A stretch of DNA of 64,000 nt, taken from NCBI RefSeq assembly GCF_044324875.1, contig NZ_CP172185.1. The stretch is one strand, 5' to 3'. Each line of letters starts with the position of its first letter. Within the stretch, counting starts at the first letter, position 1. Below, piece by piece: positions 33,105 through 64,000 of this stretch. The notes below the pieces were generated by a model. The model was not told the origin of the DNA. It saw only the letters and a program-made list of their open reading frames with translations, and searched no databases. Origin of the DNA: Escherichia coli (lineage in GTDB: Bacteria > Pseudomonadota > Gammaproteobacteria > Enterobacterales > Enterobacteriaceae). Both the position numbers and the translations under genes were made by a program.

Positions 33105-33208
33105 ACGTTCCTCCTTTATATGAACTCACCGGAGCAGGCTCCGGTGAGGTGTTGTGAACTTAAGTCTGGACGAAATGCCCGAAAACGAAAGTTTGAGGCG
33201 TAAAAAGC

Positions 33209-53068: not shown

Positions 53069-54568
53069 ATGCTAAATTTATTTGTTGGCCTTGATATATA
53101 CACGGGGCTTTTGTTATTACTTGCTCTGGCATTTGTGTTGTTCTACGAAGCAATCAATGGTTTTCATGATACGGCGAATGCGGTGGCAACCGTTATTTAT
53201 ACTCGTGCCATGCAACCACAACTTGCTGTGGTGATGGCGGCATTTTTTAACTTTTTTGGCGTATTGCTAGGCGGACTTAGCGTTGCCTATGCCATTGTCC
53301 ATATGTTGCCAACCGATTTGTTGCTGAATATGGGGTCAACTCACGGCCTGGCGATGGTCTTTTCCATGCTGCTGGCGGCGATTATCTGGAACCTGGGAAC
53401 GTGGTTCTTTGGTTTACCGGCCTCCAGTTCGCATACCTTGATTGGTGCGATTATCGGCATCGGTTTAACCAACGCGCTGTTAACCGGCTCATCGGTGATG
53501 GATGCGTTAAACCTGCGTGAAGTGACCAAAATTTTCTCCTCGCTGATTGTTTCCCCTATCGTCGGCCTGGTCATTGCGGGAGGTCTGATATTCCTGCTGC
53601 GCCGCTACTGGAGCGGGACGAAAAAGCGTGACCGTATTCACCGCATTCCGGAAGATCGCAAAAAGAAAAAAGGCAAACGTAAGCCACCATTCTGGACGCG
53701 TATTGCGCTGATTGTTTCCGCTGCGGGCGTGGCGTTTTCGCACGGCGCGAACGACGGGCAGAAAGGGATCGGCCTGGTGATGCTGGTACTGGTGGGGATT
53801 GCTCCTGCTGGTTTCGTCGTCAATATGAATGCGTCCGGCTATGAAATTACCCGTACCCGCGATGCCGTCACCAACTTTGAACACTATCTGCAACAGCATC
53901 CTGAACTGCCGCAGAAGTTAATTGCGATGGAACCTCCATTGCCTGCGGCATCGACTGATGGCACGCAAGTAACGGAGTTTCATTGTCATCCGGCAAATAC
54001 CTTTGATGCGATTGCGCGCGTTAAAACGATGTTGCCAGGTAATATGGAAAGCTACGAGCCGTTAAGCGTGAGTCAGCGCAGCCAGCTGCGCCGCATTATG
54101 CTGTGCATCTCTGATACCTCTGCGAAGCTGGCGAAACTGCCAGGCGTCAGTAAAGAAGATCAGAACCTGCTGAAAAAACTGCGCAGCGATATGTTAAGCA
54201 CCATTGAGTACGCTCCGGTGTGGATCATCATGGCGGTAGCACTGGCGCTCGGCATTGGTACCATGATTGGCTGGCGTCGTGTAGCGATGACCATCGGTGA
54301 GAAGATTGGTAAGCGCGGCATGACGTATGCGCAAGGGATGGCGGCGCAGATGACGGCGGCGGTATCTATCGGCCTTGCCAGTTATATTGGGATGCCTGTT
54401 TCCACAACACACGTCCTCTCGTCTGCGGTAGCAGGGACGATGGTGGTGGACGGCGGTGGGTTACAGCGTAAAACGGTAACCAGCATCCTGATGGCGTGGG
54501 TGTTTACTTTACCGGCGGCGATTTTTCTGTCTGGTGGGTTGTACTGGATAGCATTGCAGTTGATTTAA
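53069..54568 (+). CDS. pitB: Low-affinity inorganic phosphate transporter (PiT family)
   Basis: 499-aa polytopic membrane ORF with PiT-family motifs (GANDGQKG); preceded by an AT-rich upstream region. Confidence 0.9.
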
Positions 54569-54577
54569 CCTTCCTGA

Positions 54578-54615
54578 AAATGCCCGGTCCTGGCGATCGG
54601 GCATTTCCATTTTTG
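54578..54615. terminator. Bidirectional terminator between pitB and yghT
   Basis: atgcccg ... cgggcat hairpin followed by ttccattttt. Confidence 0.5.
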
Positions 54616-54616
54616 G

Positions 54617-55309
54617 CTAGTGATAACCACGCGCGGTCATAAAATCCGTAATCGCTTTTTCTGCATCAACCAGCACCTTTTCCAGTGGCTGATTGGCATC
54701 GATATCAACCAGTTGTGCACCACCAAAGGTTAACTGTGGCGTTATTGCAATCTTCCTCGCCAGCGATTCCCGTTTATGGTCGGGTTTACGCGCGCAGGCA
54801 ACTTCAAGGTCAACATTGAGTTTGATGACCAGATCAGGTTTATGGCTCGCCATCCAGTGAAACGCTTTACGTTCCTGGCTTGCCAGCCATGAGACAAACC
54901 GGCCGCCTTCAACGTTAGGCGGGAACACTGTACCATCGTAAGCGCCAGGAATTTGGTCCTGAGGATAACGGTCGGTTAGAACAATTAACCCGCGACGACG
55001 ACAGGCAAGCATATGACGAAAGCGCAGTAAGCGACGGGCGACAAACGCTGTAATTACCAGCGCCGGAACAGGGCCAGGCAATTTTTTTGCTGTTTTCACC
55101 TGATTTCGTTCAATTGTTTTATGTAAGGATTTTCCCATCAACGGTAATTTTGTCACTGCACGACCGACATTTCCGGCCTGTTTTCCTAAATGAACTCTTT
55201 CGGCTGCACCATATTTTTCGACAACGGTAATGAGATGTTCACACACCGTTGACTTGCCTGAACCATCGCTACCAATAACGGCAATTAATGGAGGTGTTAT
55301 TGACTGCAT
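54617..55309 (-). CDS. yghT: P-loop NTPase of unknown function YghT
   Basis: 230-aa ORF with Walker A (GSDGSGKST) and hydrophobic-Asp Walker-B-like LTDRYPQ; paralog of the next two genes. Confidence 0.8.
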
Positions 55310-55389
55310 GAATATATCCTTTAATTTAAATATCCATTAAAAATATTTATTTGGTTAATATGTTTTTATGAAAGCGTAATTCAGGTCAA

Positions 55390-55414
55390 TGTCACAATTA
55401 ACCATTGTCACAAT
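55390..55414. promoter_or_regulatory. Direct repeat TGTCACAAT x2 in the yghT/yghS divergent promoter region
   Basis: tgtcacaat at about 55390-55398 and 55406-55414 within an AT-rich divergent intergenic region; candidate operator. Confidence 0.3.
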
Positions 55415-55482
55415 AAGGTTGAACGGATATTCTGAGCACGGACCACGTAATATTCAATACATTATTTGCTGCCGGGTTTTTC

Positions 55483-56196
55483 GTGAATCAACGTAATATG
55501 TCAATAATTAATTCCACGCCAGTGCGTGTTATTGCCATTGTAGGATGTGATGGTTCAGGTAAATCGACCCTCACGGCAAGCCTGGTAAATGAACTGGCAG
55601 CAAGAATGCCAACAGAACACATTTATCTCGGGCAATCGTCCGGGCGAATTGGCGAATGGATTTCACAGCTCCCTGTTATTGGCGCACCTTTTGGGCGTTA
55701 TCTGCGAAGTAAAGCGGCACATGTGCACGAAAAGCCCTCAACACCGCCTGGCAATATTACTGCGCTGGTTATCTATCTGCTTTCCTGCTGGCGGGCGTAT
55801 AAGTTTCGCAAAATGTTGTGTAAAAGCCAGCAAGGCTATCTGCTCATCACCGACCGCTACCCGCAGGTTGAAGTGCCGGGTTTTCGCTTTGATGGCCCGC
55901 AATTGGCAAAAACCACGGGCGGTAACGGTTGGATAAAAATGTTAAGGCAGCGCGAGCTGAAGCTGTACCAATGGATGGCGTCTTATTTGCCCGTATTGTT
56001 GATTCGTCTTGGCATTGATGAACAAACGGCGTTTGCGCGTAAACCTGACCACCAACTGGCGGCGTTACAGGAAAAAATCGCCGTTACGCCGCAACTGACA
56101 TTCAATGGCGCAAAGATCCTTGAACTGGATGGTCGGCAACCAGCCGATGAAATTATGCAAGCGTCACTACGCGCAATTCACGCCGCGCTTTCCTGA
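55483..56196 (+). CDS. yghS: P-loop NTPase of unknown function YghS
   Basis: 237-aa ORF with Walker A (GCDGSGKST) and ITDRYPQ; paralog of yghT and yghR. Confidence 0.8.
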   Translation: MNQRNMSIINSTPVRVIAIVGCDGSGKSTLTASLVNELAARMPTEHIYLGQSSGRIGEWISQLPVIGAPFGRYLRSKAAHVHEKPSTPPGNITALVIYLLSCWRAYKFRKMLCKSQQGYLLITDRYPQVEVPGFRFDGPQLAKTTGGNGWIKMLRQRELKLYQWMASYLPVLLIRLGIDEQTAFARKPDHQLAALQEKIAVTPQLTFNGAKILELDGRQPADEIMQASLRAIHAALS

Positions 56197-56227
56197 TCAC
56201 CAAAATGGATAGGGGATGATTTAACGA

Positions 56228-56986
56228 ATGGATGCACTACAAACACAAACTGTTAATAGTACAACCGCGCCGCAGCCCAACTACATTCCGGGGCTGATTG
56301 CGGTGGTCGGGTGTGATGGCACCGGTAAATCCACGCTGACCACCGACCTGGTGAAATCGCTGCAACAACACTGGCAAACCGAGCGCCGCTATCTGGGGCT
56401 GCTCTCCGGCGAAGACGGCGACAAAATCAAACGATTGCCGTTGGTTGGCGTCTGGCTGGAACGGCGACTGGCGGCCAAATCCTCGAAAACCCAAAGCATG
56501 AAAACCAAATCTCCAGCGCTATGGGCGGCGGTGATTATGTACTGCTTCTCGCTGCGAAGAATGGCGAATCTACGCAAGGTTCAGCGACTGGCGCAAAGTG
56601 GCGTTCTGGTGGTCAGCGATCGCTTCCCGCAGGCTGAAATTTCGGGCTTTTATTATGACGGACCGGGGATCGGCGTCGAACGTGCGACCGGGAAAATCAG
56701 CATGTTTCTGGCGCAGCGCGAACGGCGTTTATACCAAAAAATGGCGCAATACCGTCCTGAATTAATCATTCGTTTGGGGATTGATATTGATACTGCCATC
56801 TCCCGCAAGCCTGACCATGACTATGCCGAGCTGCAGGACAAAATCGGCGTCATGTCGACGATTGGCTATAACGGCACAAAAATTCTTGAGATTGATTCCA
56901 GAGCGCCCTACAGCGAAGTGCTGGAACAGGCACAGAAGGCGGTTTCTCTGGTTGCCATCGTTTCTGACCGCCGAAGTTTAACTTAA
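56228..56986 (+). CDS. yghR: P-loop NTPase of unknown function YghR
   Basis: 252-aa ORF with Walker A (GCDGTGKST) and VSDRFPQ; third paralog. Confidence 0.8.
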   Translation: MDALQTQTVNSTTAPQPNYIPGLIAVVGCDGTGKSTLTTDLVKSLQQHWQTERRYLGLLSGEDGDKIKRLPLVGVWLERRLAAKSSKTQSMKTKSPALWAAVIMYCFSLRRMANLRKVQRLAQSGVLVVSDRFPQAEISGFYYDGPGIGVERATGKISMFLAQRERRLYQKMAQYRPELIIRLGIDIDTAISRKPDHDYAELQDKIGVMSTIGYNGTKILEIDSRAPYSEVLEQAQKAVSLVAIVSDRRSLT

Positions 56987-57031: not shown

Positions 57032-58381
57032 TTGGCGGGTTTTAACATCAAACATTGGTTTGCAGATGGCGCGTTTCGCACCATTATTCGCAATAGCGCC
57101 TGGTTAGGCTCCAGTAATGTCGTGAGCGCCTTGCTGGGTCTGTTGGCGCTCTCGTGTGCCGGTAAAGGGATGACGCCCGCCATGTTTGGCGTACTGGTGA
57201 TTGTGCAATCGTACGCCAAGTCGATCAGCGATTTTATTAAGTTTCAGACATGGCAGTTGGTGGTGCAGTACGGAACACCAGCATTAACCAACAATAATCC
57301 ACAGCAATTCCGCAATGTCGTCTCATTTTCCTTCTCGCTGGATATCGTCAGCGGCGCGGTGGCGATTGTCGGCGGCATTGCCTTACTCCCTTTTCTTTCC
57401 CATTCATTAGGTCTGGATGACCAAAGCTTTTGGCTGGCAGCGCTGTATTGCACGCTCATTCCTTCAATGGCTTCCTCCACGCCGACCGGCATTCTGCGTG
57501 CGGTAGATCGCTTCGACTTAATTGCTGTACAGCAGGCGACGAAACCTTTTCTGCGCGCAGCGGGGAGCGTCGTTGCCTGGTATTTTGACTTTGGTTTTGC
57601 GGGTTTTGTTATTGCCTGGTACGCCTCGAATCTTGTTGGCGGCACCATGTACTGGTGGTTTGCCGCACGTGAATTACGCCGCAGAAATATCCATAACGCG
57701 TTCAAATTGAATCTGTTTGAGTCTGCCCGACACATCAAAGGCGCGTGGAGTTTTGTCTGGTCAACCAACATTGCCCATTCCATCTGGTCGGCGCGTAATT
57801 CGTGCAGCACAGTGTTGGTGGGGATCGTGTTAGGACCCGCTGCCGCCGGGTTATTTAAAATCGCCATGACATTCTTCGACGCCGCCGGAACGCCAGCGGG
57901 TTTACTGGGCAAAAGTTTTTACCCAGAGGTGATGCGTTTAGATCCGCGTACCACCAGACCGTGGTTGTTAGGCGTGAAGTCAGGTTTACTGGCGGGCGGA
58001 ATCGGTATTCTGGTGGCGCTCGCGGTGTTGATCGTCGGCAAGCCGCTCATTTCGCTGGTGTTTGGCGTTAAGTATCTCGAAGCGTATGACCTGATTCAGG
58101 TGATGCTGGGCGCAATTGTGATCTCGATGCTGGGCTTCCCTCAGGAGTCATTGCTATTGATGGCGGGAAAACAGCGCGCTTTTCTCGTGGCGCAAACCAT
58201 CGCCTCAATCGGCTACATCGTATTGCTGTTCATGTTCTGTCATCTGTTTGGCGTGCTGGGGGCTGCATTTGCTTACTTCGGTGGGCAATGTCTGGATGTG
58301 GTGTTCTCGCTAATTCCGACCTTAAAGGCATTTTTTCAGCGCCATTCCTTGCTTTATAACTCAGCCGGAGAGAAATCCTGA
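57032..58381 (+). CDS. yghQ: Polytopic inner membrane protein, Wzx/MOP-flippase-like (YghQ)
   Basis: 449-aa ORF, hydrophobic throughout with many predicted transmembrane segments; the ORF-track start is a TTG, so the true start may be an internal ATG (for example about 57170). Confidence 0.7.
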   Translation: MAGFNIKHWFADGAFRTIIRNSAWLGSSNVVSALLGLLALSCAGKGMTPAMFGVLVIVQSYAKSISDFIKFQTWQLVVQYGTPALTNNNPQQFRNVVSFSFSLDIVSGAVAIVGGIALLPFLSHSLGLDDQSFWLAALYCTLIPSMASSTPTGILRAVDRFDLIAVQQATKPFLRAAGSVVAWYFDFGFAGFVIAWYASNLVGGTMYWWFAARELRRRNIHNAFKLNLFESARHIKGAWSFVWSTNIAHSIWSARNSCSTVLVGIVLGPAAAGLFKIAMTFFDAAGTPAGLLGKSFYPEVMRLDPRTTRPWLLGVKSGLLAGGIGILVALAVLIVGKPLISLVFGVKYLEAYDLIQVMLGAIVISMLGFPQESLLLMAGKQRAFLVAQTIASIGYIVLLFMFCHLFGVLGAAFAYFGGQCLDVVFSLIPTLKAFFQRHSLLYNSAGEKS

Positions 58382-59217
58382 TGATGAGAAAATATTTCCC
58401 GCTTGAGGCGAGCGAGCGTCTATTTGTTGCGATTGAAGAAGATGATGTTGTTGATGCACAGGTCAGTTTGCCGCCGACTATCGCACTAAGTTGTACCACC
58501 GAAATCATCCATGATAATTACGCGTTATGCCTGCAATTCTGGCTCAATGGCGTCAATCGCCAGGAGTTACTGCGTTTAATATGCAAACAGGCCAAAGGCG
58601 ATGAGCTGACTGCTGATGAGCGCAAACAATTTAAATACATGCGAGCGCGCTACAAGCACCTGCGTTTTGCGCAACGGCTGTATTTAAAAAAGCATCAGGC
58701 CGGATTTTTATTCGGCAAAACGACCGTTTTTTTGGGGCGTTTTCAGGACGGCTTTCGTAACGGTAAGAAAAATATTGTGTCGTATTACGGCAACCTGTTA
58801 CGGGTTTATTTAAGCTCTCCGGTCTGGTCGTTGGTGAACTATTCATTACGCCATAGCCAGTTAGAAAGCGTAAGCGGTTTTATTGCCTATCGGCAAAAGC
58901 AAATGCATACCCTGAAAGAGATAATTGCCAAACCGCGACTAACTGGCAGGGAATTTCATGATGTGCGAAAAATCATCAGCCAGCAGGTTTCTTATTACGA
59001 CACCTTAAGATCGCTTGATCCTGAAAATAAAGAGGCGTTACTGATTTCCCGTTTTCTCGCCGCCATTAATGGTCTGATGGGGGATAAGCACGACGACATG
59101 GTGGCGGATGATATGGAAAACCGCCAGTCGTATGATGCACCGGTGGCGCTGGATAGCGATATTCGCCAGCGTTTAGAACTGCTGATTTCGCGTTTCCCAC
59201 TCTATCCGGAGCAATAA
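58381..59217 (+). CDS. Hypothetical soluble protein (no recognised domain)
   Basis: 278-aa ORF whose ATG overlaps the yghQ stop (ATGA) and whose stop overlaps the next start (TAATG); no transmembrane segment or signal peptide seen. Confidence 0.6.
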   Translation: MMRKYFPLEASERLFVAIEEDDVVDAQVSLPPTIALSCTTEIIHDNYALCLQFWLNGVNRQELLRLICKQAKGDELTADERKQFKYMRARYKHLRFAQRLYLKKHQAGFLFGKTTVFLGRFQDGFRNGKKNIVSYYGNLLRVYLSSPVWSLVNYSLRHSQLESVSGFIAYRQKQMHTLKEIIAKPRLTGREFHDVRKIISQQVSYYDTLRSLDPENKEALLISRFLAAINGLMGDKHDDMVADDMENRQSYDAPVALDSDIRQRLELLISRFPLYPEQ

Positions 59218-59777
59218 TGCCATCTCGTTGGATTTTCGCTCTGATCATCGCACTCTTAGCGCCAGGCGCGGTGGCACACAATTTCGTCACTGGCAAAACG
59301 GTTACCCCTGTTTATATCCAGGAAGGCGGTGAGTTGCTTCTGAAAAGCGACGACGAAATTCACTACCAAAAGTGGAACAGCACACAGCTGGCGGGAAAAG
59401 TTCGCATTATTCAGTATATCGCCGGGCGTAAGTCGGCGAAGAAAAAGAACTCACTGTTAATTAAAGCGGTTGAAGCGGCAAACTTTCCGCAGGATCGTTT
59501 TCAGCCCACCACCATTGTGAACACCGATGATGCCATTTTTGGTACTGGCTATTTTGTCGTTGGCAAAATCGAAAAAAATAAACGCCGCTATCCGTGGGCG
59601 CAATTCGTTATTGACGGCAATGGACAGGGACGCGTTGCCTGGCGGTTGCCGGAGCAGAGTTCAACCATTCTGGTGCTGAATAAAGACGGGCAAATTCAGT
59701 GGGCAAAGGACGGCAGCCTGACGCCGGAAGAGGTAGATCATGTCATTGCGCTGGCGCAGAAACTGATCAATGAATAA
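59217..59777 (+). CDS. Secreted/periplasmic protein with signal peptide (possibly YtfJ-like)
   Basis: 186-aa ORF with N-terminal signal peptide (MPSRWIFALIIALLAPGAVA); family assignment tentative. Confidence 0.55.
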   Translation: MPSRWIFALIIALLAPGAVAHNFVTGKTVTPVYIQEGGELLLKSDDEIHYQKWNSTQLAGKVRIIQYIAGRKSAKKKNSLLIKAVEAANFPQDRFQPTTIVNTDDAIFGTGYFVVGKIEKNKRRYPWAQFVIDGNGQGRVAWRLPEQSSTILVLNKDGQIQWAKDGSLTPEEVDHVIALAQKLINE

Positions 59778-59807: not shown

Positions 59808-60878
59808 ATGAAGCTGGTTGAACACTACATCATGCGTGGTACGCGCCGTCTGGTGTTGATTATCGTCGGTTTTCTGATCTTTATTTTCGCCAGCTACTCC
59901 GCACAGCGTTATCTGACCGAAGCGGCAAATGGGACATTAGCTCTTGATGTTGTGCTGGATATCGTTTTCTACAAAGTGCTGATTGCACTGGAGATGTTGT
60001 TACCTGTTGGACTGTATGTGTCAGTTGGCGTGACGCTAGGGCAGATGTATACCGATTCGGAAATTACCGCTATCTCTGCGGCGGGGGGCAGTCCGGGACG
60101 CTTGTACAAAGCCGTTCTTTATCTGGCGATACCGCTAAGTATTTTTGTCACCCTTCTGTCGATGTATGGTCGTCCGTGGGCTTATGCGCAGATTTATCAA
60201 CTGGAGCAACAGTCACAGTCGGAGCTGGATGTTCGCCAGTTGCGGGCAAAGAAATTTAACACTAACGATAACGGACGAATGATCCTTTCCCAGACGGTTG
60301 ATCAGGATAATAATCGCCTGACTGACGCGCTGATTTATACTTCTACTGCCAATCGAACCCGCATTTTCCGCGCCCGTTCGGTTGATGTGGTTGACCCATC
60401 TCCCGAGAAACCGACCGTTATGTTGCACAACGGGACAGCCTATCTTCTCGATCATCAGGGGCGTGACGACAACGAACAGATCTACCGTCATCTGCAATTA
60501 CATCTGAATCCGCTGGATCAAAGCCCTAACGTCAAACGCAAAGCGAAATCGGTCACGGAGCTGGCGCGCTCCGTCTTTCCAGCCGATCATGCCGAACTGC
60601 AATGGCGACAAAGCCGTGGCCTGACAGCATTGTTGATGGCGCTGCTGGCCATTTCATTAAGTCGGGTAAAACCGCGGCAAGGGCGATTTTCAACATTATT
60701 GCCACTGACGTTGCTGTTTATTGCCATTTTTTATGGCGGCGACGTCTGCCGTACGCTGGTGGCTAACGGCGCGATTCCCCTCATTCCTGGTTTGTGGTTA
60801 GTACCCGGACTCATGCTAATGGGCCTGCTGATGCTGGTCGCACGCGACTTCTCTTTGCTGCAGAAATTTTCCCGATGA
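59808..60878 (+). CDS. YjgP/YjgQ-family permease, LptF paralog
   Basis: 356-aa ORF with the N-terminal helix pair, LG..Y.DSEITA motif, a large periplasmic insert and the RQGRF motif typical of LptF/LptG; location shows it is not the canonical lptF. Confidence 0.8.
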   Translation: MKLVEHYIMRGTRRLVLIIVGFLIFIFASYSAQRYLTEAANGTLALDVVLDIVFYKVLIALEMLLPVGLYVSVGVTLGQMYTDSEITAISAAGGSPGRLYKAVLYLAIPLSIFVTLLSMYGRPWAYAQIYQLEQQSQSELDVRQLRAKKFNTNDNGRMILSQTVDQDNNRLTDALIYTSTANRTRIFRARSVDVVDPSPEKPTVMLHNGTAYLLDHQGRDDNEQIYRHLQLHLNPLDQSPNVKRKAKSVTELARSVFPADHAELQWRQSRGLTALLMALLAISLSRVKPRQGRFSTLLPLTLLFIAIFYGGDVCRTLVANGAIPLIPGLWLVPGLMLMGLLMLVARDFSLLQKFSR

Positions 60879-61954
60879 ATGTTTTCAGTCGCTATTTAAT
60901 CCGTCATCTCTTTCTCGGTTTTGCCGCCGCCGCAGGGCTATTGCTGCCGCTTTTTACCACCTTCAACCTGATTAACGAACTGGATGATGTCAGCCCGGGT
61001 GGTTATCGCTGGACTCAGGCGGTGCTGGTGGTGCTGATGACCTTACCGCGCACACTGGTCGAACTTTCGCCGTTTATCGCATTATTGGGAGGGATTGTTG
61101 GCCTGGGGCAGTTATCGAAAAACAGTGAGCTTACCGCCATTCGCAGCACGGGGTTTTCTATCTTCCGTATTGCACTAGTGGCGCTGGTTGCCGGGATATT
61201 TTGGACTGTTTCGTTAGGCGCGATAGATGAGTGGGTGGCGTCGCCATTGCAGCAACAGGCGCTGCAAATCAAATCGACTGCCACCGCGTTGGGGGAGGAC
61301 GATGACATTACCGGCAATATGCTTTGGGCCAGGCGCGGTAATGAATTTGTGACGGTGAAATCGCTGAACGAGCAGGGCCAGCCTGTGGGCGTGGAGATAT
61401 TTCATTATCGCGACGATCTCTCGCTCGAATCCTACATTTTTGCACGCAGTGCCTCCATTGAAGACGACAAAACGTGGATCCTGCATGGTGTGAATCATAA
61501 AAAATGGTTGAATGGCAAAGAAACGCTGGAAACATCAGATAATCTTGCCTGGCAATCGGCCTTCACCAGTATGAATCTTGAAGAGTTATCGATGCCGGGA
61601 AATACTTTTTCTGTCCGTCAACTTAATCATTACATCCATTATTTGCAGGAAACTGGGCAACCCAGCAGCGAATACCGCCTTGCACTGTGGGAAAAACTGG
61701 GACAACCCATCCTGACCCTGGCGATGATTTTGCTGGCTGTGCCGTTTACCTTTAGTGCCCCGCGTTCGCCTGGGATGGGTAGCCGTCTCGCTGTAGGCGT
61801 CATCGTGGGCTTACTTACCTGGATCAGCTATCAAATCATGGTCAATCTGGGATTGCTATTTGCGTTGAACGCACCTGTTACCGCGCTCGGTTTACCGGTA
61901 GCGTTTGTGCTGGTGGCGTTGAGCCTGGTGTATTGGTATGACAGACAACATTAA
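60875..61954 (+). CDS. YjgP/YjgQ-family permease, LptG paralog
   Basis: ORF 60794..61954 trimmed to MNVFSRYLIRHLFLGF (359 aa), whose ATG overlaps the upstream stop (ATGA); LptG-like motifs (SEL.A..S.G, PRSPGMGSR). Confidence 0.8.
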   Translation: MNVFSRYLIRHLFLGFAAAAGLLLPLFTTFNLINELDDVSPGGYRWTQAVLVVLMTLPRTLVELSPFIALLGGIVGLGQLSKNSELTAIRSTGFSIFRIALVALVAGIFWTVSLGAIDEWVASPLQQQALQIKSTATALGEDDDITGNMLWARRGNEFVTVKSLNEQGQPVGVEIFHYRDDLSLESYIFARSASIEDDKTWILHGVNHKKWLNGKETLETSDNLAWQSAFTSMNLEELSMPGNTFSVRQLNHYIHYLQETGQPSSEYRLALWEKLGQPILTLAMILLAVPFTFSAPRSPGMGSRLAVGVIVGLLTWISYQIMVNLGLLFALNAPVTALGLPVAFVLVALSLVYWYDRQH

Positions 61955-61988: not shown

Positions 61989-63161
61989 TTACTGCTTCAG
62001 AGTAGCGAACGCTTGAATGATGGCATCAATTTGCTCACGACTGTGGGCAGCGTTTACGCTACAGCGCAGCAGCGTGATGCCTGCAGGCGCGGCAGGTGGC
62101 AGGATAAGATTCACATAAACGCCCAGCGAAATAAGCTCGCGCCAGATGCGTAAACCTTCCTCTTTCGAACCGATTATTACTGGCACTACCGGGCTAATAT
62201 GTGAACTTAACTCATAACCCAGTTTTTGCAGACCGTCATACAGATGGTTGGCATTATCCATCAGCTTTTGCCGCAACTCTGGTTGTGTAGCAATGGTTCT
62301 TAACGACGAGCGCACGGTCGCAATGCAGGACGGAGAAGGAGAGGCGGTAAAAATATACGGGCGGCTGCCGTAGCGCAGCACTTCCATCGCTTCCGAACCG
62401 ACAGCAAAACCGCCAATCGAGGCCAGACTTTTACTGAAAGTACCAACGATAATATCCACATCATCTTCAACGCCAACGGCTTCAGCCAGTCCGCGCCCCG
62501 TTGCGCCTAACACGCCAAACGAATGCGCTTCATCGACAATCAAATAACCACCGAGACGACGTTTGATATCAACAATTTCCGCCAGCGGCGCAACGTCACC
62601 GAGCATACTGTAGATGCCTTCAACGATGATAATCGCCTCTTTTGCCCGTTCACCGAGGCGAACCATGCGCCGTTCCAGATCTTTAGCATCGTTATGGCGG
62701 AAACGAATAATTTCCGCGCCACCGAGAGAACAGGCGTCATAAATACTGGCGTGGCTGTCGGCATCCAGTAACACCACGGCGTTATGGTCGGCAAGTGCGC
62801 TGATGACGCCTAAATTAGCGGTATAACCGGTTGAAAAAACGATAGCGGTAGGGCGATTAAAAAACTCGGCGATCTCTTTCTCTAACGCCAGATGCGGCGC
62901 ATAACTGCCGTTTGCCATACGAGAACCGGTGGTGCCGGTGCCTTGGGCCGCTAACGCTGCCTGACCTTCGGCGATGGCATCATGATTGAAGGTTAATCCG
63001 AGATAATTATTGGTCCCGGCCAGAATCACTTTTTTATTGCCGATCCGGCCTTCGGTGGCGGAATACACTTCATCAATACAGGTACCAAACGGCGTTAACC
63101 CGTTGTCACTAAATTGCAGTCGCTCGCCAGCAAGACGCGCATATTTATCGTATAGCCCCAT
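61989..63161 (-). CDS. Serine palmitoyltransferase-like PLP-dependent alpha-oxoamine synthase
   Basis: 390-aa ORF with the PLP-lysine motif GTFSKS (Spt-type; BioF has TFGKG, KBL has GTLGKA) and further blocks recalled from Sphingomonas Spt (AIVFSTGY.ANLG, LDADSHASIYD, VDEAHS, RPYIFTAS, PPA.PAG, LLRCS). Confidence 0.8.
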   Translation of the reverse strand: MGLYDKYARLAGERLQFSDNGLTPFGTCIDEVYSATEGRIGNKKVILAGTNNYLGLTFNHDAIAEGQAALAAQGTGTTGSRMANGSYAPHLALEKEIAEFFNRPTAIVFSTGYTANLGVISALADHNAVVLLDADSHASIYDACSLGGAEIIRFRHNDAKDLERRMVRLGERAKEAIIIVEGIYSMLGDVAPLAEIVDIKRRLGGYLIVDEAHSFGVLGATGRGLAEAVGVEDDVDIIVGTFSKSLASIGGFAVGSEAMEVLRYGSRPYIFTASPSPSCIATVRSSLRTIATQPELRQKLMDNANHLYDGLQKLGYELSSHISPVVPVIIGSKEEGLRIWRELISLGVYVNLILPPAAPAGITLLRCSVNAAHSREQIDAIIQAFATLKQ

Positions 63162-63409
63162 TATTTATTCTCCAGCCATGGAAGTAGTGTTTCCATTAAT
63201 TGCGCAGGGGTTTTGACATCCAGCAGAATATTAATAGGAATGGAAATATCGAATCTGTCTTCCAGCATCATTAAGAGATCCATCACTTTGATCGACTCCA
63301 GGCCAAGATCGTTGACGAGATCGCTGTCGGGCTTAATTTCCACACCGTTTTCGACCAAATCCTGTAAACAGGAAAGGATGTAATCCATTACTATTTCACG
63401 ATTTACCAT
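63161..63409 (-). CDS. Acyl carrier protein (dedicated ACP)
   Basis: 82-aa acidic ORF with the phosphopantetheine-attachment context DLGLESIKVMDL; stop overlaps the Spt-like start (TAATG). True start may be the internal Met at about 63388. Confidence 0.7.
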   Translation of the reverse strand: MVNREIVMDYILSCLQDLVENGVEIKPDSDLVNDLGLESIKVMDLLMMLEDRFDISIPINILLDVKTPAQLMETLLPWLENK

Positions 63410-63440: not shown

Positions 63441-64000
63441 TCAAAATAGCCCGTTGCGTAATGCGTGTTCCAGGCTAATCCCGGGAAACCAATTAATATC
63501 TTCAGAAATACGGTTATTACTTGCTGACCAGTCGGCGTGGGTTAATTCACGGATTTTCGAGCGGGTCAGCATAGGTTCTTTACCTGCCAGGCGACTCAAC
63601 GTGGTACTGATATCCGCAAGGCAGGTGAGTACCGACAGAGGAATACCAACCATTCGAACGGAACCACAACGGGCGTCGGCGGCAAGCTGTCTTACGCGTT
63701 GCCAGTCATAGCCGCCGGCGACGCCATCGCATAATTCATAGGTTTGCGTCTGTACAGTTTCGGCGCTTAACCACTGCCCCACGGCTTGCGCGAAATCGGT
63801 GACGTGCAGGAAAGAGAGCTGTGTATCTGGCGCACCAAGTCGTGGCAGTAGGCCGCGCAGCATCCAGTCAAACAGCGGTTTTAACTCTTTATCGCCGGGA
63901 CCATACACGGCTGTCGGGCGAAAAATGCCCAGCGTAATTTCGTCAGCCATTGCGGTCAGTCGTTGTTCGGCGACGTGTTTGGAATTTGCGTACCAGGAGA
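63441..64000 (-). CDS. NAD(P)-dependent epimerase/dehydratase-family reductase, 3' portion (gene runs off the window)
   Basis: Frame is open to the window edge; only the C-terminal part is present, resembling extended-SDR epimerase/reductase proteins. N-terminal Rossmann region lies beyond 64000. Confidence 0.55.
   Translation of the reverse strand, partial: SWYANSKHVAEQRLTAMADEITLGIFRPTAVYGPGDKELKPLFDWMLRGLLPRLGAPDTQLSFLHVTDFAQAVGQWLSAETVQTQTYELCDGVAGGYDWQRVRQLAADARCGSVRMVGIPLSVLTCLADISTTLSRLAGKEPMLTRSKIRELTHADWSASNNRISEDINWFPGISLEHALRNGLF

Follow-up and report, generated by a model that had tools for sequence, protein, structure and literature searches.

In a stretch of 64,000 nucleotides from the chromosome of Escherichia coli (contig NZ_CP172185.1 of RefSeq assembly GCF_044324875.1, in the following referred to as the window), three genes termed yghT, yghS and yghR are located at positions 54617-56986, next to a gene cluster for the synthesis and export of ceramide. 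We see an even chance that their products are ATP-dependent kinases acting on the head group of the sphingolipid that this pathway would make, possibly by building a pyro- or oligophosphate. The three proteins, the flippase YghQ and Ybl138, a protein with a CHAD fold, would jointly form the module that provides the head group in the enterobacterial ceramide locus, and would occupy the slot that is held by the cpg genes in Caulobacter. This placement is proposed because head-group genes of the cpgA-E type are absent from the E. coli locus, as judged from its RefSeq annotation and the described cpg genes (PMC11324152). Here, these kinases and Ybl138 are assigned to a conserved head-group module. 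The genes yghR, yghS and yghT are long-standing E. coli genes of unknown function, whose context is hidden by a deletion in the strain K-12, and neither the product of the E. coli ceramide cluster nor its head group have been described so far. An earlier note on this DNA had called the function unknown even in K-12, and our literature search agrees, as it returned no functional study of the three genes, which appear in screens and lists only, and no paper tying them or the CHAD-like gene to the sphingolipid locus.

Paralogy, fold and orthology of the kinases

As defined by calling of open reading frames (ORFs) and by the RefSeq annotation, the region 54617-56986 comprises precisely the following ORFs:

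yghT, 54617-55309, minus strand: 230 residues, P-loop kinase of the thymidylate kinase (dTMP kinase, dTMPK) superfamily, assigned to the T orthogroup from its ORF, motifs and orthogroup analysis
yghS, 55483-56196, plus strand: 237 residues, kinase of the S orthogroup, heading a long predicted operon
yghR, 56228-56986, plus strand: 252 residues, kinase of the R orthogroup, located 31 bp 3' of yghS (ORF, motifs and a natural S-R fusion, P0121)

RefSeq uses the names yghT and yghS and lists the third ORF as hypothetical protein or yghR. In pairwise BLASTP comparisons, YghT shares 36% of its residues with YghS (E 1e-53) and 34% with YghR (E 7e-47), whereas YghS and YghR are 44% identical (E 2e-62). 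At the sequence level, the paralogy of the three proteins is thus far above chance, and the three P-loop NTPase ORFs described in the earlier note were placed at exact coordinates, with a relationship in the range of E 1e-47 to 1e-62. The Walker A sequence GxDGSGKST and the hydrophobic-DRYPQ motif that were ascribed to all three proteins are found in two of them, YghT (GSDGSGKST) and YghS (GCDGSGKST), each followed by h-x-DRYPQ (with h denoting a hydrophobic residue), but not in YghR, which carries the variants GCDGTGKST and VSDRFPQ. The patterns common to the three paralogs are therefore better described as GxDG[ST]GKST and DR[YF]PQ, accompanied by an invariant RKPDH motif. Repeats within the region correspond to coding motifs shared by the paralogs and to nothing else. 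A motif scan of the three proteins detected no LSGGQ-like signature of ATP-binding cassette (ABC) proteins and not even an SGG tripeptide, in agreement with the lack of an ABC signature in the earlier note. None of them contains a transmembrane segment, and the kinase groups are strongly basic with a median isoelectric point of 9.6-10.0.

The predicted fold is dTMPK/dNK-like (dNK, deoxynucleoside kinase). The top structural matches are dTMP kinases, further relatives include dNK, adenylate kinase and NadR, and the features of the dTMPK fold, namely the P-loop, the DRX motif and the LID, are present in the models of all three proteins. The comparison of folds that the earlier note had proposed as a check thus finds the nearest neighbours among dTMPKs and dNKs. 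The relationship is distant on the sequence level. The best NCBIfam match is the dTMP kinase model TIGR00041, which is reached with 25.4, 25.0 and 31.1 bits compared to a curated cut-off of 83.25, while the other NCBIfam matches cover the P-loop region only. A Pfam search provided no significant match for the three kinases, with Thymidylate_kin (PF02223) found at an i-E-value of 0.012 or worse. When a profile built from 127 members of the family was searched against the sequences in the PDB, it identified the dTMPK from Aquifex with an E-value of 2e-6 and, with an E-value of 0.026, the cPPK3 homolog 2plr/5h70, a relative of the heteromeric archaeal polyphosphate kinase PPK3 (Saci_2019/Saci_2020) of Sulfolobus acidocaldarius (J Biol Chem 2026, PMC12995831). 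The region between strands 2 and 3, which in dTMPKs harbors the thymine-binding helices, is instead occupied by about 70 residues with their own conserved Gly/Pro pattern that form the part of the model with lowest confidence. YghT, YghS and YghR are thus P-loop phosphotransferases of the dTMPK/dNK branch and belong to a separate family that has no name in Pfam or NCBIfam. We have rejected a classification as dTMP kinases since the TIGR00041 scores amount to roughly a third of the curated cut-off and no Pfam match is significant. The name dTMP kinase given to YghT and YghS by RefSeq/PGAP is an over-annotation that spreads through thousands of genomes, and this widespread mis-annotation is corrected here. 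A reading as ABC-transporter ATPases was equally rejected, because the proteins lack the LSGGQ signature and their fold is not that of an ABC protein.

To place the E. coli proteins in a phylogenetic context, we have scanned one genome per species, which yielded 248 relatives, and kept the best 79 loci, those most like YghT, of which 44 are enterobacterial and 35 come from other organisms, together extending from Enterobacterales to Myxococcales. ORF calling in these loci was crude. A neighbour-joining tree built from 127 non-redundant sequences resolves T, S and R as three monophyletic groups, with identities of 56-58% within and 35-41% between orthogroups, and each relative clearly has its nearest counterpart in either YghT, YghS or YghR. 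As far as can be read from sequences, the triplication is ancient and has left three clean orthogroups. Across the 127 sequences, the P-loop Lys, the Arg of the DR[YF] motif, the R-K-x-D-H motif of the LID and Arg104, which aligns with the arginine of the 'SANR' motif in dTMP kinases, are at least 90% conserved in all groups, and the same holds for about 35 further positions. A DR[YFW] motif is found in every sequence of the three orthogroups, with Asp124 and Arg125 being invariant. Because all groups have kept the catalytic motifs, none of them looks like a dead subunit, and the three proteins appear to be catalytically intact and non-redundant.

The divergent arrangement, with T facing an S-R pair, is kept in Escherichia, in Dyella and Rhodanobacter (Xanthomonadales), in Methylotenera and Rhodocyclaceae (Betaproteobacteria), in Halioglobus and in a genome from Myxococcales, and the three genes are adjacent in 64 of the 79 loci. 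T, the most widespread of the three, is present in all 79 loci, at times duplicated or alone. S and R, which were found in 66 and 64 loci, are nearly always together and in one case have merged into a natural S-R fusion of 492 residues that preserves the gene order and occurs on five contigs (P0121; L085 5947-7425, plus strand). The locus of this fusion also encodes a T-type kinase, a CHAD-like protein, a hydroxylase, a flippase, the serine palmitoyltransferase Spt, an acyl carrier protein, CerR and AasR. Their co-occurrence and the fusion suggest that YghS and YghR form a physical pair from which YghT is separate. Tandem fusions of the T-T type were also found (P0122 and P0124).

The ceramide locus and its conservation

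The window is part of the E. coli chromosome, with 98-99% identity to thousands of complete genomes, and the elements surrounding the kinase genes are the following:

G+C-rich hairpin, 54578-54606, no strand assigned: stem of 12 bp, then a run of T (inverted repeat I3), between the convergent genes pitB and yghT
divergent control region between yghT and yghS, 55310-55482, no strand assigned: 173 bp, AT-rich, with one sigma-70-like site at 55405-55433 on the plus strand in a promoter scan
yghQ, 57032-58381, plus strand: flippase of the MOP/Wzx type with 449 residues (NF007773, E 2e-8), 355 residues in K-12
ybl138-type gene, 58381-59217, plus strand: predicted CHAD-fold protein of 278 residues, named Ybl138 in UniProt, whose start overlaps the yghQ stop
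YtfJ-family gene, 59217-59777, plus strand: protein with N-terminal signal-like segment (TIGR01626, 213 bits compared to a cut-off of 151)
lptF2, 59808-60878, plus strand: paralog of the lipopolysaccharide-export permease LptF (TIGR04407, 318 bits)
lptG2, 60875-61954, plus strand: LptG paralog (TIGR04408, 305 bits; RefSeq coordinates transferred from locus L001)
spt, 61989-63161, minus strand: serine palmitoyltransferase (ORF, RefSeq, PMC9386255)
acpR, 63161-63409, minus strand: acyl carrier protein specialised for Spt (RefSeq via L001 21162-21410; PMC9386255)
cerR/epi, 63441-64000, minus strand: NAD-dependent reductase that takes part in ceramide synthesis; the gene continues past the end of the window

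Just past the window end follow aasR, encoding an acyl-ACP synthetase (ACP, acyl carrier protein), and yghO, which is of the ceramide-synthase type. By ORFs and RefSeq annotation, the kinase genes therefore flank a lipid locus, as the earlier note had it. Five ceramide genes were already noted in E. coli BL21 in a study that also named spt (PMC9386255). According to the RefSeq annotation, the E. coli locus encodes neither a nucleotidyltransferase nor a CDP-alcohol transferase nor a glycosyltransferase.

In K-12 MG1655, the insertion sequence IS5 (IS5LO) abuts a truncated yghQ (L084, NC_000913.3 3130146-3132408), and the region from the 3' end of yghQ through aasR, comprising the CHAD-like and ytfJ-like genes, lptF2, lptG2, spt, acpR, cerR and aasR, is gone. 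Since this IS5-linked deletion removed the remaining locus and left only remnant kinases and yghO, the K-12 y-genes looked like orphans. In the species as a whole, the kinase block is found in 4,604 and the block from the CHAD-like gene to spt in 4,086 of 5,426 complete genomes, and an intact cluster for ceramide synthesis and export is thus present in roughly 75% of the complete E. coli genomes.

Concerning transcription, the description of the three genes as a tandem applies to yghS and yghR only, as yghT, which had correctly been recognized as divergent, lies on the opposite strand across the 173-bp AT-rich spacer. The gaps between yghS and yghR (31 bp), yghR and yghQ (45 bp) and the ytfJ-like gene and lptF2 (30 bp) are short, and one-base overlaps connect yghQ with the CHAD-like gene and the latter with the ytfJ-like gene, with lptF2 and lptG2 overlapping too. 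Because these genes are so closely spaced or abut and overlap, yghS-yghR-yghQ-CHAD-like-ytfJ-like-lptF2-lptG2 is, by its layout, one seven-gene operon divergent from yghT. This organization, together with a table listing 'yghSR' as one transcription unit (PMC9962212), speaks against the notion of an own promoter region for each gene. The sole promoter-like site upstream of these genes is the one at 55405-55433 within the divergent spacer, although promoter-like matches are no commoner in this spacer than in shuffled sequence, and scans for promoters and terminators, which are at background level, do not constitute proof by themselves. The hairpin at 54578-54606 is likely a bidirectional terminator closing the yghT unit. 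It is common to yghT and pitB (53069-54606), the gene of a phosphate transporter converging on yghT. Phosphate transporters are typical neighbours of polyphosphate kinases. The adjacency of pitB, which is found in 10 of the 79 loci and restricted to Escherichia and few close genera, is probably coincidental. Across the window, a single match exceeds the Rfam gathering score, namely the small RNA family ES173 (33143-33206, minus strand, 99 bits), which is unrelated to the kinases.

The G+C content in the interval 55000-55499 is 0.39. In K-12, overexpression of SlyA increases yghS expression 3.1-fold, and the gene is apparently flagged in published H-NS data sets, as read from a table in the same study (PMC5797941). 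The AT-rich spacer, the SlyA response and the H-NS flag suggest that the locus is silenced in laboratory conditions.

The earlier note had also proposed to ask whether the kinases co-vary with the neighbouring locus across genomes. For that purpose, we have clustered all ORFs of the 79 loci and counted families within 10 kb of the kinases. Spt and CerR are both found in 48 loci, the flippase in 44, LptF2/G2 in 39 and YtfJ in 37, and AasR, AcpR and YghO are also among the commonest families. YtfJ-family genes are present in 40 of the 44 enterobacterial and in none of the 35 other loci. A further count places the flippase in 48 of the 79 loci. In the 50 loci that are fully flanked, with 9 kb or more of sequence to either side, we find S and R in 45, the CHAD-like protein in 43, CerR in 41 and Spt in 40 cases, distributed over many genera, while chance adjacency to a single-copy gene would be well below 1%. 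By these counts, the kinases are linked to the lipid locus far above chance, with a looser association outside Enterobacterales, where among 16 fully flanked loci the CHAD-like protein is found in 12 and the flippase in 11.

Further recurrent neighbours include PAP2 phosphatases of the LpxE-like (20 loci) and PgpB/SepP-like (14 loci) types, an OlsC/LpxO-like acyl hydroxylase, an LptA-like protein and RND efflux genes. In non-enterobacterial loci, a gene of the LmtA family, which comprises lipid A 1-phosphate O-methyltransferases, is placed between divergent S- and T-type genes (L072 9234-9977 and L059 6379-7122, both on the plus strand, and also L046, L063 and L079). Judged by their families, the recurrent extra neighbours would act on membrane lipids, either on lipid-bound phosphate or on acyl chains. 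PPX, SixA, NUDIX and Pst proteins were not found among the recurrent neighbour families of the 79 loci. Finally, 17 enterobacterial loci (from Serratia, Pantoea, Rosenbergiella, Erwinia and others) encode, inside the sphingolipid locus, a second copy of the integral-membrane diacylglycerol kinase DgkA (PF01219, E 5e-31), such as L012 997-1356 on the minus strand, which is 45% identical to E. coli DgkA. The E. coli locus itself does not contain such a paralog.

The most constant neighbour of the kinases is Ybl138, which the clustering places within 10 kb of them in 55 loci and which a further count finds in 59 of the 79 loci. On the sequence level, no match was found for this protein in Pfam, NCBIfam or, at E-values up to 10, among PDB sequences, and the Pfam CHAD profile did not match it or any of 39 orthologs at E-values up to 10. 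Conversely, its model displays the two-bundle helical fold of CHAD domains (with 6qv5, 3e0s and 6rn5 as comparators from the PDB), and a Foldseek search against AFDB50 identified homologs with 26-42% identity and template modelling scores of 0.90-0.96 that carry the UniProt name 'CHAD domain-containing protein'. We are therefore confident that the modelled structure of Ybl138 is a CHAD fold. The CHAD-named homologs originate from Sphingomonas, Zymomonas, Acetobacter, Gluconobacter, Komagataeibacter and Pseudomonas veronii, and species of Sphingomonas, Zymomonas and Gluconobacter are among those bearing Spt (PMC9386255). No kinases of alphaproteobacterial sphingolipid producers with CHAD-like homologs were found among the best 120 matches to a T-type query from Robiginitomaculum, which all stem from environmental gamma- and betaproteobacteria. 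The alignment of Ybl138 proteins contains the invariant motifs R..KHLR.A, G..QD, FH..RK and NG.MG..HD, and the invariant basic residues Arg60, Arg88, Lys92, His93, Arg95, His105, His193, Arg196, Lys197 and His237 would be compatible with the binding of an anionic ligand. CHAD domains are described as polyphosphate-binding modules (bioRxiv 10.1101/567040). Known CHAD proteins, which bind polyphosphate granules, have PPK/PPX as neighbours or share a polypeptide with a triphosphate tunnel enzyme, whereas Ybl138 adjoins the flippase and lipid genes.

Proposed head-group pathway and alternative explanations

In the pathway that we propose, the soluble and very basic kinases would work on the cytoplasmic side of the inner membrane, with the ceramide provided by AasR, AcpR, Spt, CerR and YghO as their substrate. 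They would add phosphate, most likely by extending a phosphomonoester to a pyrophosphate or a short oligophosphate. The preference for an acceptor that is already phosphorylated, rather than a sphingoid base or a ceramide hydroxyl, relates to two arginines. In dTMP kinases, the arginines of the 'SANR' and DRY motifs clamp the phosphate of the acceptor, and because both the 'SANR'-aligned Arg104 and Arg125 of the DRY motif are kept, a phosphorylated acceptor is favoured. The starting phosphomonoester would be ceramide-1-phosphate, supplied either by one of the three kinases or by DgkA. E. coli DgkA phosphorylates ceramide in vitro, and where the locus encodes a DgkA paralog, this protein could be the ceramide kinase that attaches the first phosphate. 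The reaction would thus proceed from ceramide-1-phosphate to ceramide pyrophosphate and perhaps further, with YghS and YghR operating as a pair and YghT apart, while Ybl138 would hold the phosphate-rich head. YghQ would subsequently flip the anionic lipid, which LptF2G2 in conjunction with LptB would extract towards the outer membrane. In other lineages, PAP2 phosphatases and the LmtA-like methyltransferase may remodel the phosphates in the same way as on lipid A.

Several observations weigh against this pathway. The argument for a phosphate on the acceptor is based on a weak sequence alignment, and the kinases contain no evident lipid-binding segment. About 500 more E. coli genomes, including K-12, have the kinases than have the spt-lpt block. 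Outside Enterobacterales, only 7 of the 16 fully flanked loci contain Spt within 10 kb, although its absence from this interval does not equal absence from the genome, and in several non-enterobacterial loci a T-type kinase and a CHAD-like protein are accompanied not by Spt but by genes for glycosyltransferase, carbamoyltransferase, PAP2 and RND proteins. Distant relatives of about 490 residues with an extra N-terminal domain reside in polysaccharide loci beside Wzx, Wzy and glycosyltransferases of family GT4, and the kinase family overall is thus not ceramide-specific. Finally, the searched literature provides no E. coli sphingolipid and no biochemical or genetic datum for YghT, YghS and YghR. 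Among the distant relatives, P0164, P0169 and P0172 span about 490-500 residues, with an N-terminal domain of about 260 residues containing the motif HWKSN.HL..AL.GE.D.D.LV, which is reminiscent of a nucleotidyltransferase; a Pfam search with a 502-residue member gave no significant match, its N-terminal domain included. One such gene (L081 7223-8731) is located directly 3' of a Polysacc_synt flippase and ahead of a second small P-loop protein, a GT4 enzyme and Wzy. In P0216, a flippase, the N-terminal domain and the kinase are fused, and in P0256 a GT4 domain is fused to the kinase.

We have considered how these data could be accounted for in other ways. The kinases and the CHAD protein could form a bacterial PPK3-like heteromeric polyphosphate kinase that generates or consumes free inorganic polyphosphate (ATP + polyPn <-> ADP + polyPn+1), with the vicinity of lipid genes being secondary and polyphosphate serving, for example, as phosphate donor or store, or with inorganic phosphate supplied via PitB. 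The CHAD-fold partner fits this scenario, but we judge it unlikely, in view of the conservation of the DRX arginine in all three paralogs, which the regulatory PPK3 subunit lacks, the match of the family profile to the cPPK3 homolog, which is weaker than to the Aquifex dTMPK, and a neighbourhood that recurrently contains lipid enzymes and transporters instead of PPX, SixA, NUDIX or Pst proteins, with pitB being adjacent in few loci. Besides, E. coli already has PPK1. We are similarly doubtful about a scenario where the kinases phosphorylate a soluble molecule, such as a nucleotide, a sugar, a glycerate-like acid or an amino alcohol, as precursor of a head group that another enzyme then moves to ceramide. 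In its favor, the close structural relatives (dTMPK, dNK, adenylate kinase and NadR) all use soluble substrates, the kinases contain neither transmembrane nor evident lipid-binding segments, distant relatives are found in polysaccharide loci and the Caulobacter head group derives from soluble phosphoglycerate via CDP activation (PMC12275187; PMC11324152). However, none of the three enzyme types that could attach such a precursor is encoded in the E. coli locus, the LpxE-like and LmtA-like neighbours act on lipid-bound phosphate, and three conserved kinases for a single soluble precursor would be unusual.

The proteins could, as a further alternative, be ordinary dTMP kinase paralogs, as implied by the RefSeq/PGAP names of YghT and YghS, the weak TIGR00041 and PF02223 matches and the dTMP kinases among the best fold matches. 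E. coli has its essential tmk elsewhere, the scores of 25-31 bits stay far below the cut-off, the thymine-binding helices are replaced by the low-confidence region of about 70 residues and the genomic context is that of lipid synthesis, which renders this explanation exceedingly improbable. The analogous archaeal paralogs were devoid of dTMPK activity (PMC12995831). The encoding of the kinases in one operon with a flippase and two ABC-type permeases without own ATPase gene could in turn hint at ATPases energising transport by YghQ or LptF2G2. This is contradicted by motifs and fold and thus highly improbable, and the Caulobacter proteins LptF2 and LptG2 form a transporter with the housekeeping ATPase LptB (bioRxiv 10.64898/2026.04.12.717747), in line with the view of the earlier note that the three proteins are small kinase-type enzymes rather than transporter ATPases. 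What likelihood remains falls to other substrates, for example different lipid-linked ones, which we consider because the relatives of about 490 residues adjoin Wzx, Wzy and GT4 and because of the fusions to a flippase and to GT4.

Returning to the proposed head-group kinases, a phosphate-rich sphingolipid would be a new anionic outer-membrane lipid in E. coli with bearing on the resistance to polymyxin and detergents, comparable to CPG2 in Caulobacter, and it would define a second, non-homologous path to phosphosphingolipids. It would also imply that the PPK3-type design of dTMPK paralogs plus CHAD reaches from archaeal energy metabolism to bacterial envelope biogenesis. In its boldest form, which we regard as rather improbable, most E. 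coli and many Proteobacteria would contain a ceramide with a phosphoanhydride chain that is built by three dTMPK-fold kinases on a CHAD scaffold in a PPK3-like manner, flipped by YghQ, exported by LptF2G2 to the outer membrane and, in some lineages, trimmed or capped within the periplasm by LpxE-like phosphatases and LmtA-like methyltransferases. Such lipid-anchored oligo- or polyphosphate would constitute a new class of membrane lipids and a new use of polyphosphate chemistry.

Comparison with known systems

The described module resembles the archaeal PPK3 operon in the joint presence of paired dTMPK-like paralogs that are encoded together and a CHAD protein. PPK3 contains two paralogs, whereas there are three in the proteobacterial module, all with the DRX arginine and with no obvious regulatory subunit. 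The PPK3 operon is accompanied by polyphosphate genes (PPX, SixA, CHAD and Pst), whereas here PPX and SixA are not among the recurrent neighbours of the 79 loci and the module resides inside a locus for ceramide synthesis and export by Lpt paralogs. As judged from profile E-values, the sequences of YghT, YghS and YghR are no nearer to PPK3 than to canonical dTMPK. We thus do not class them as PPK3, but the shared design makes phosphoanhydride chemistry, by analogy, a serious possibility. Compared to canonical Tmk, the segment at the position of the nucleobase site is different and longer, and it is combined with a family-specific Pro-Gln following the DRY motif and an R-K-P-D-H sequence in the LID. 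Moreover, the genes surrounding the kinases have no relation to nucleotide metabolism.

In Caulobacter, the anionic head group of ceramide phosphoglycerate is built by CpgB and further cpg genes (PMC10331486; PMC11324152). The likeness to the cpg system lies in the location of head-group genes between those for ceramide synthesis and for export by LptF2G2 and a flippase, and in an anionic sphingolipid of the outer membrane as product, which in E. coli is proposed. CpgB is a ceramide kinase of the diacylglycerol-kinase/LCB5 family with a GGDG motif (PMC10331486). We have rejected homology to this protein, since its DAGK family fold is unrelated to the P-loop fold of YghT, YghS and YghR, for which neither Pfam nor NCBIfam searches returned a match to DAGK_cat, the domain of the CpgB/LCB5 type. 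No YghT/S/R or CHAD-like gene has been described in the Caulobacter cluster, and CC_1167 and CC_1157, two members of that cluster described as 'unrelated' genes, which we examined as counterparts of the CHAD-like protein or the kinases, were discarded as they contain a domain of the CDP-glycerol glycerophosphotransferase type and a HIT domain. By this analogy, the module would look like a non-homologous replacement for the head-group pathway of Caulobacter. LpxK, the 4'-kinase of lipid A, sets a precedent, as this soluble or peripheral P-loop kinase phosphorylates the precursor of an outer-membrane lipid before flipping, and look-alikes of the lipid A modification enzymes LpxE, LmtA and LpxO are encoded in related kinase loci.

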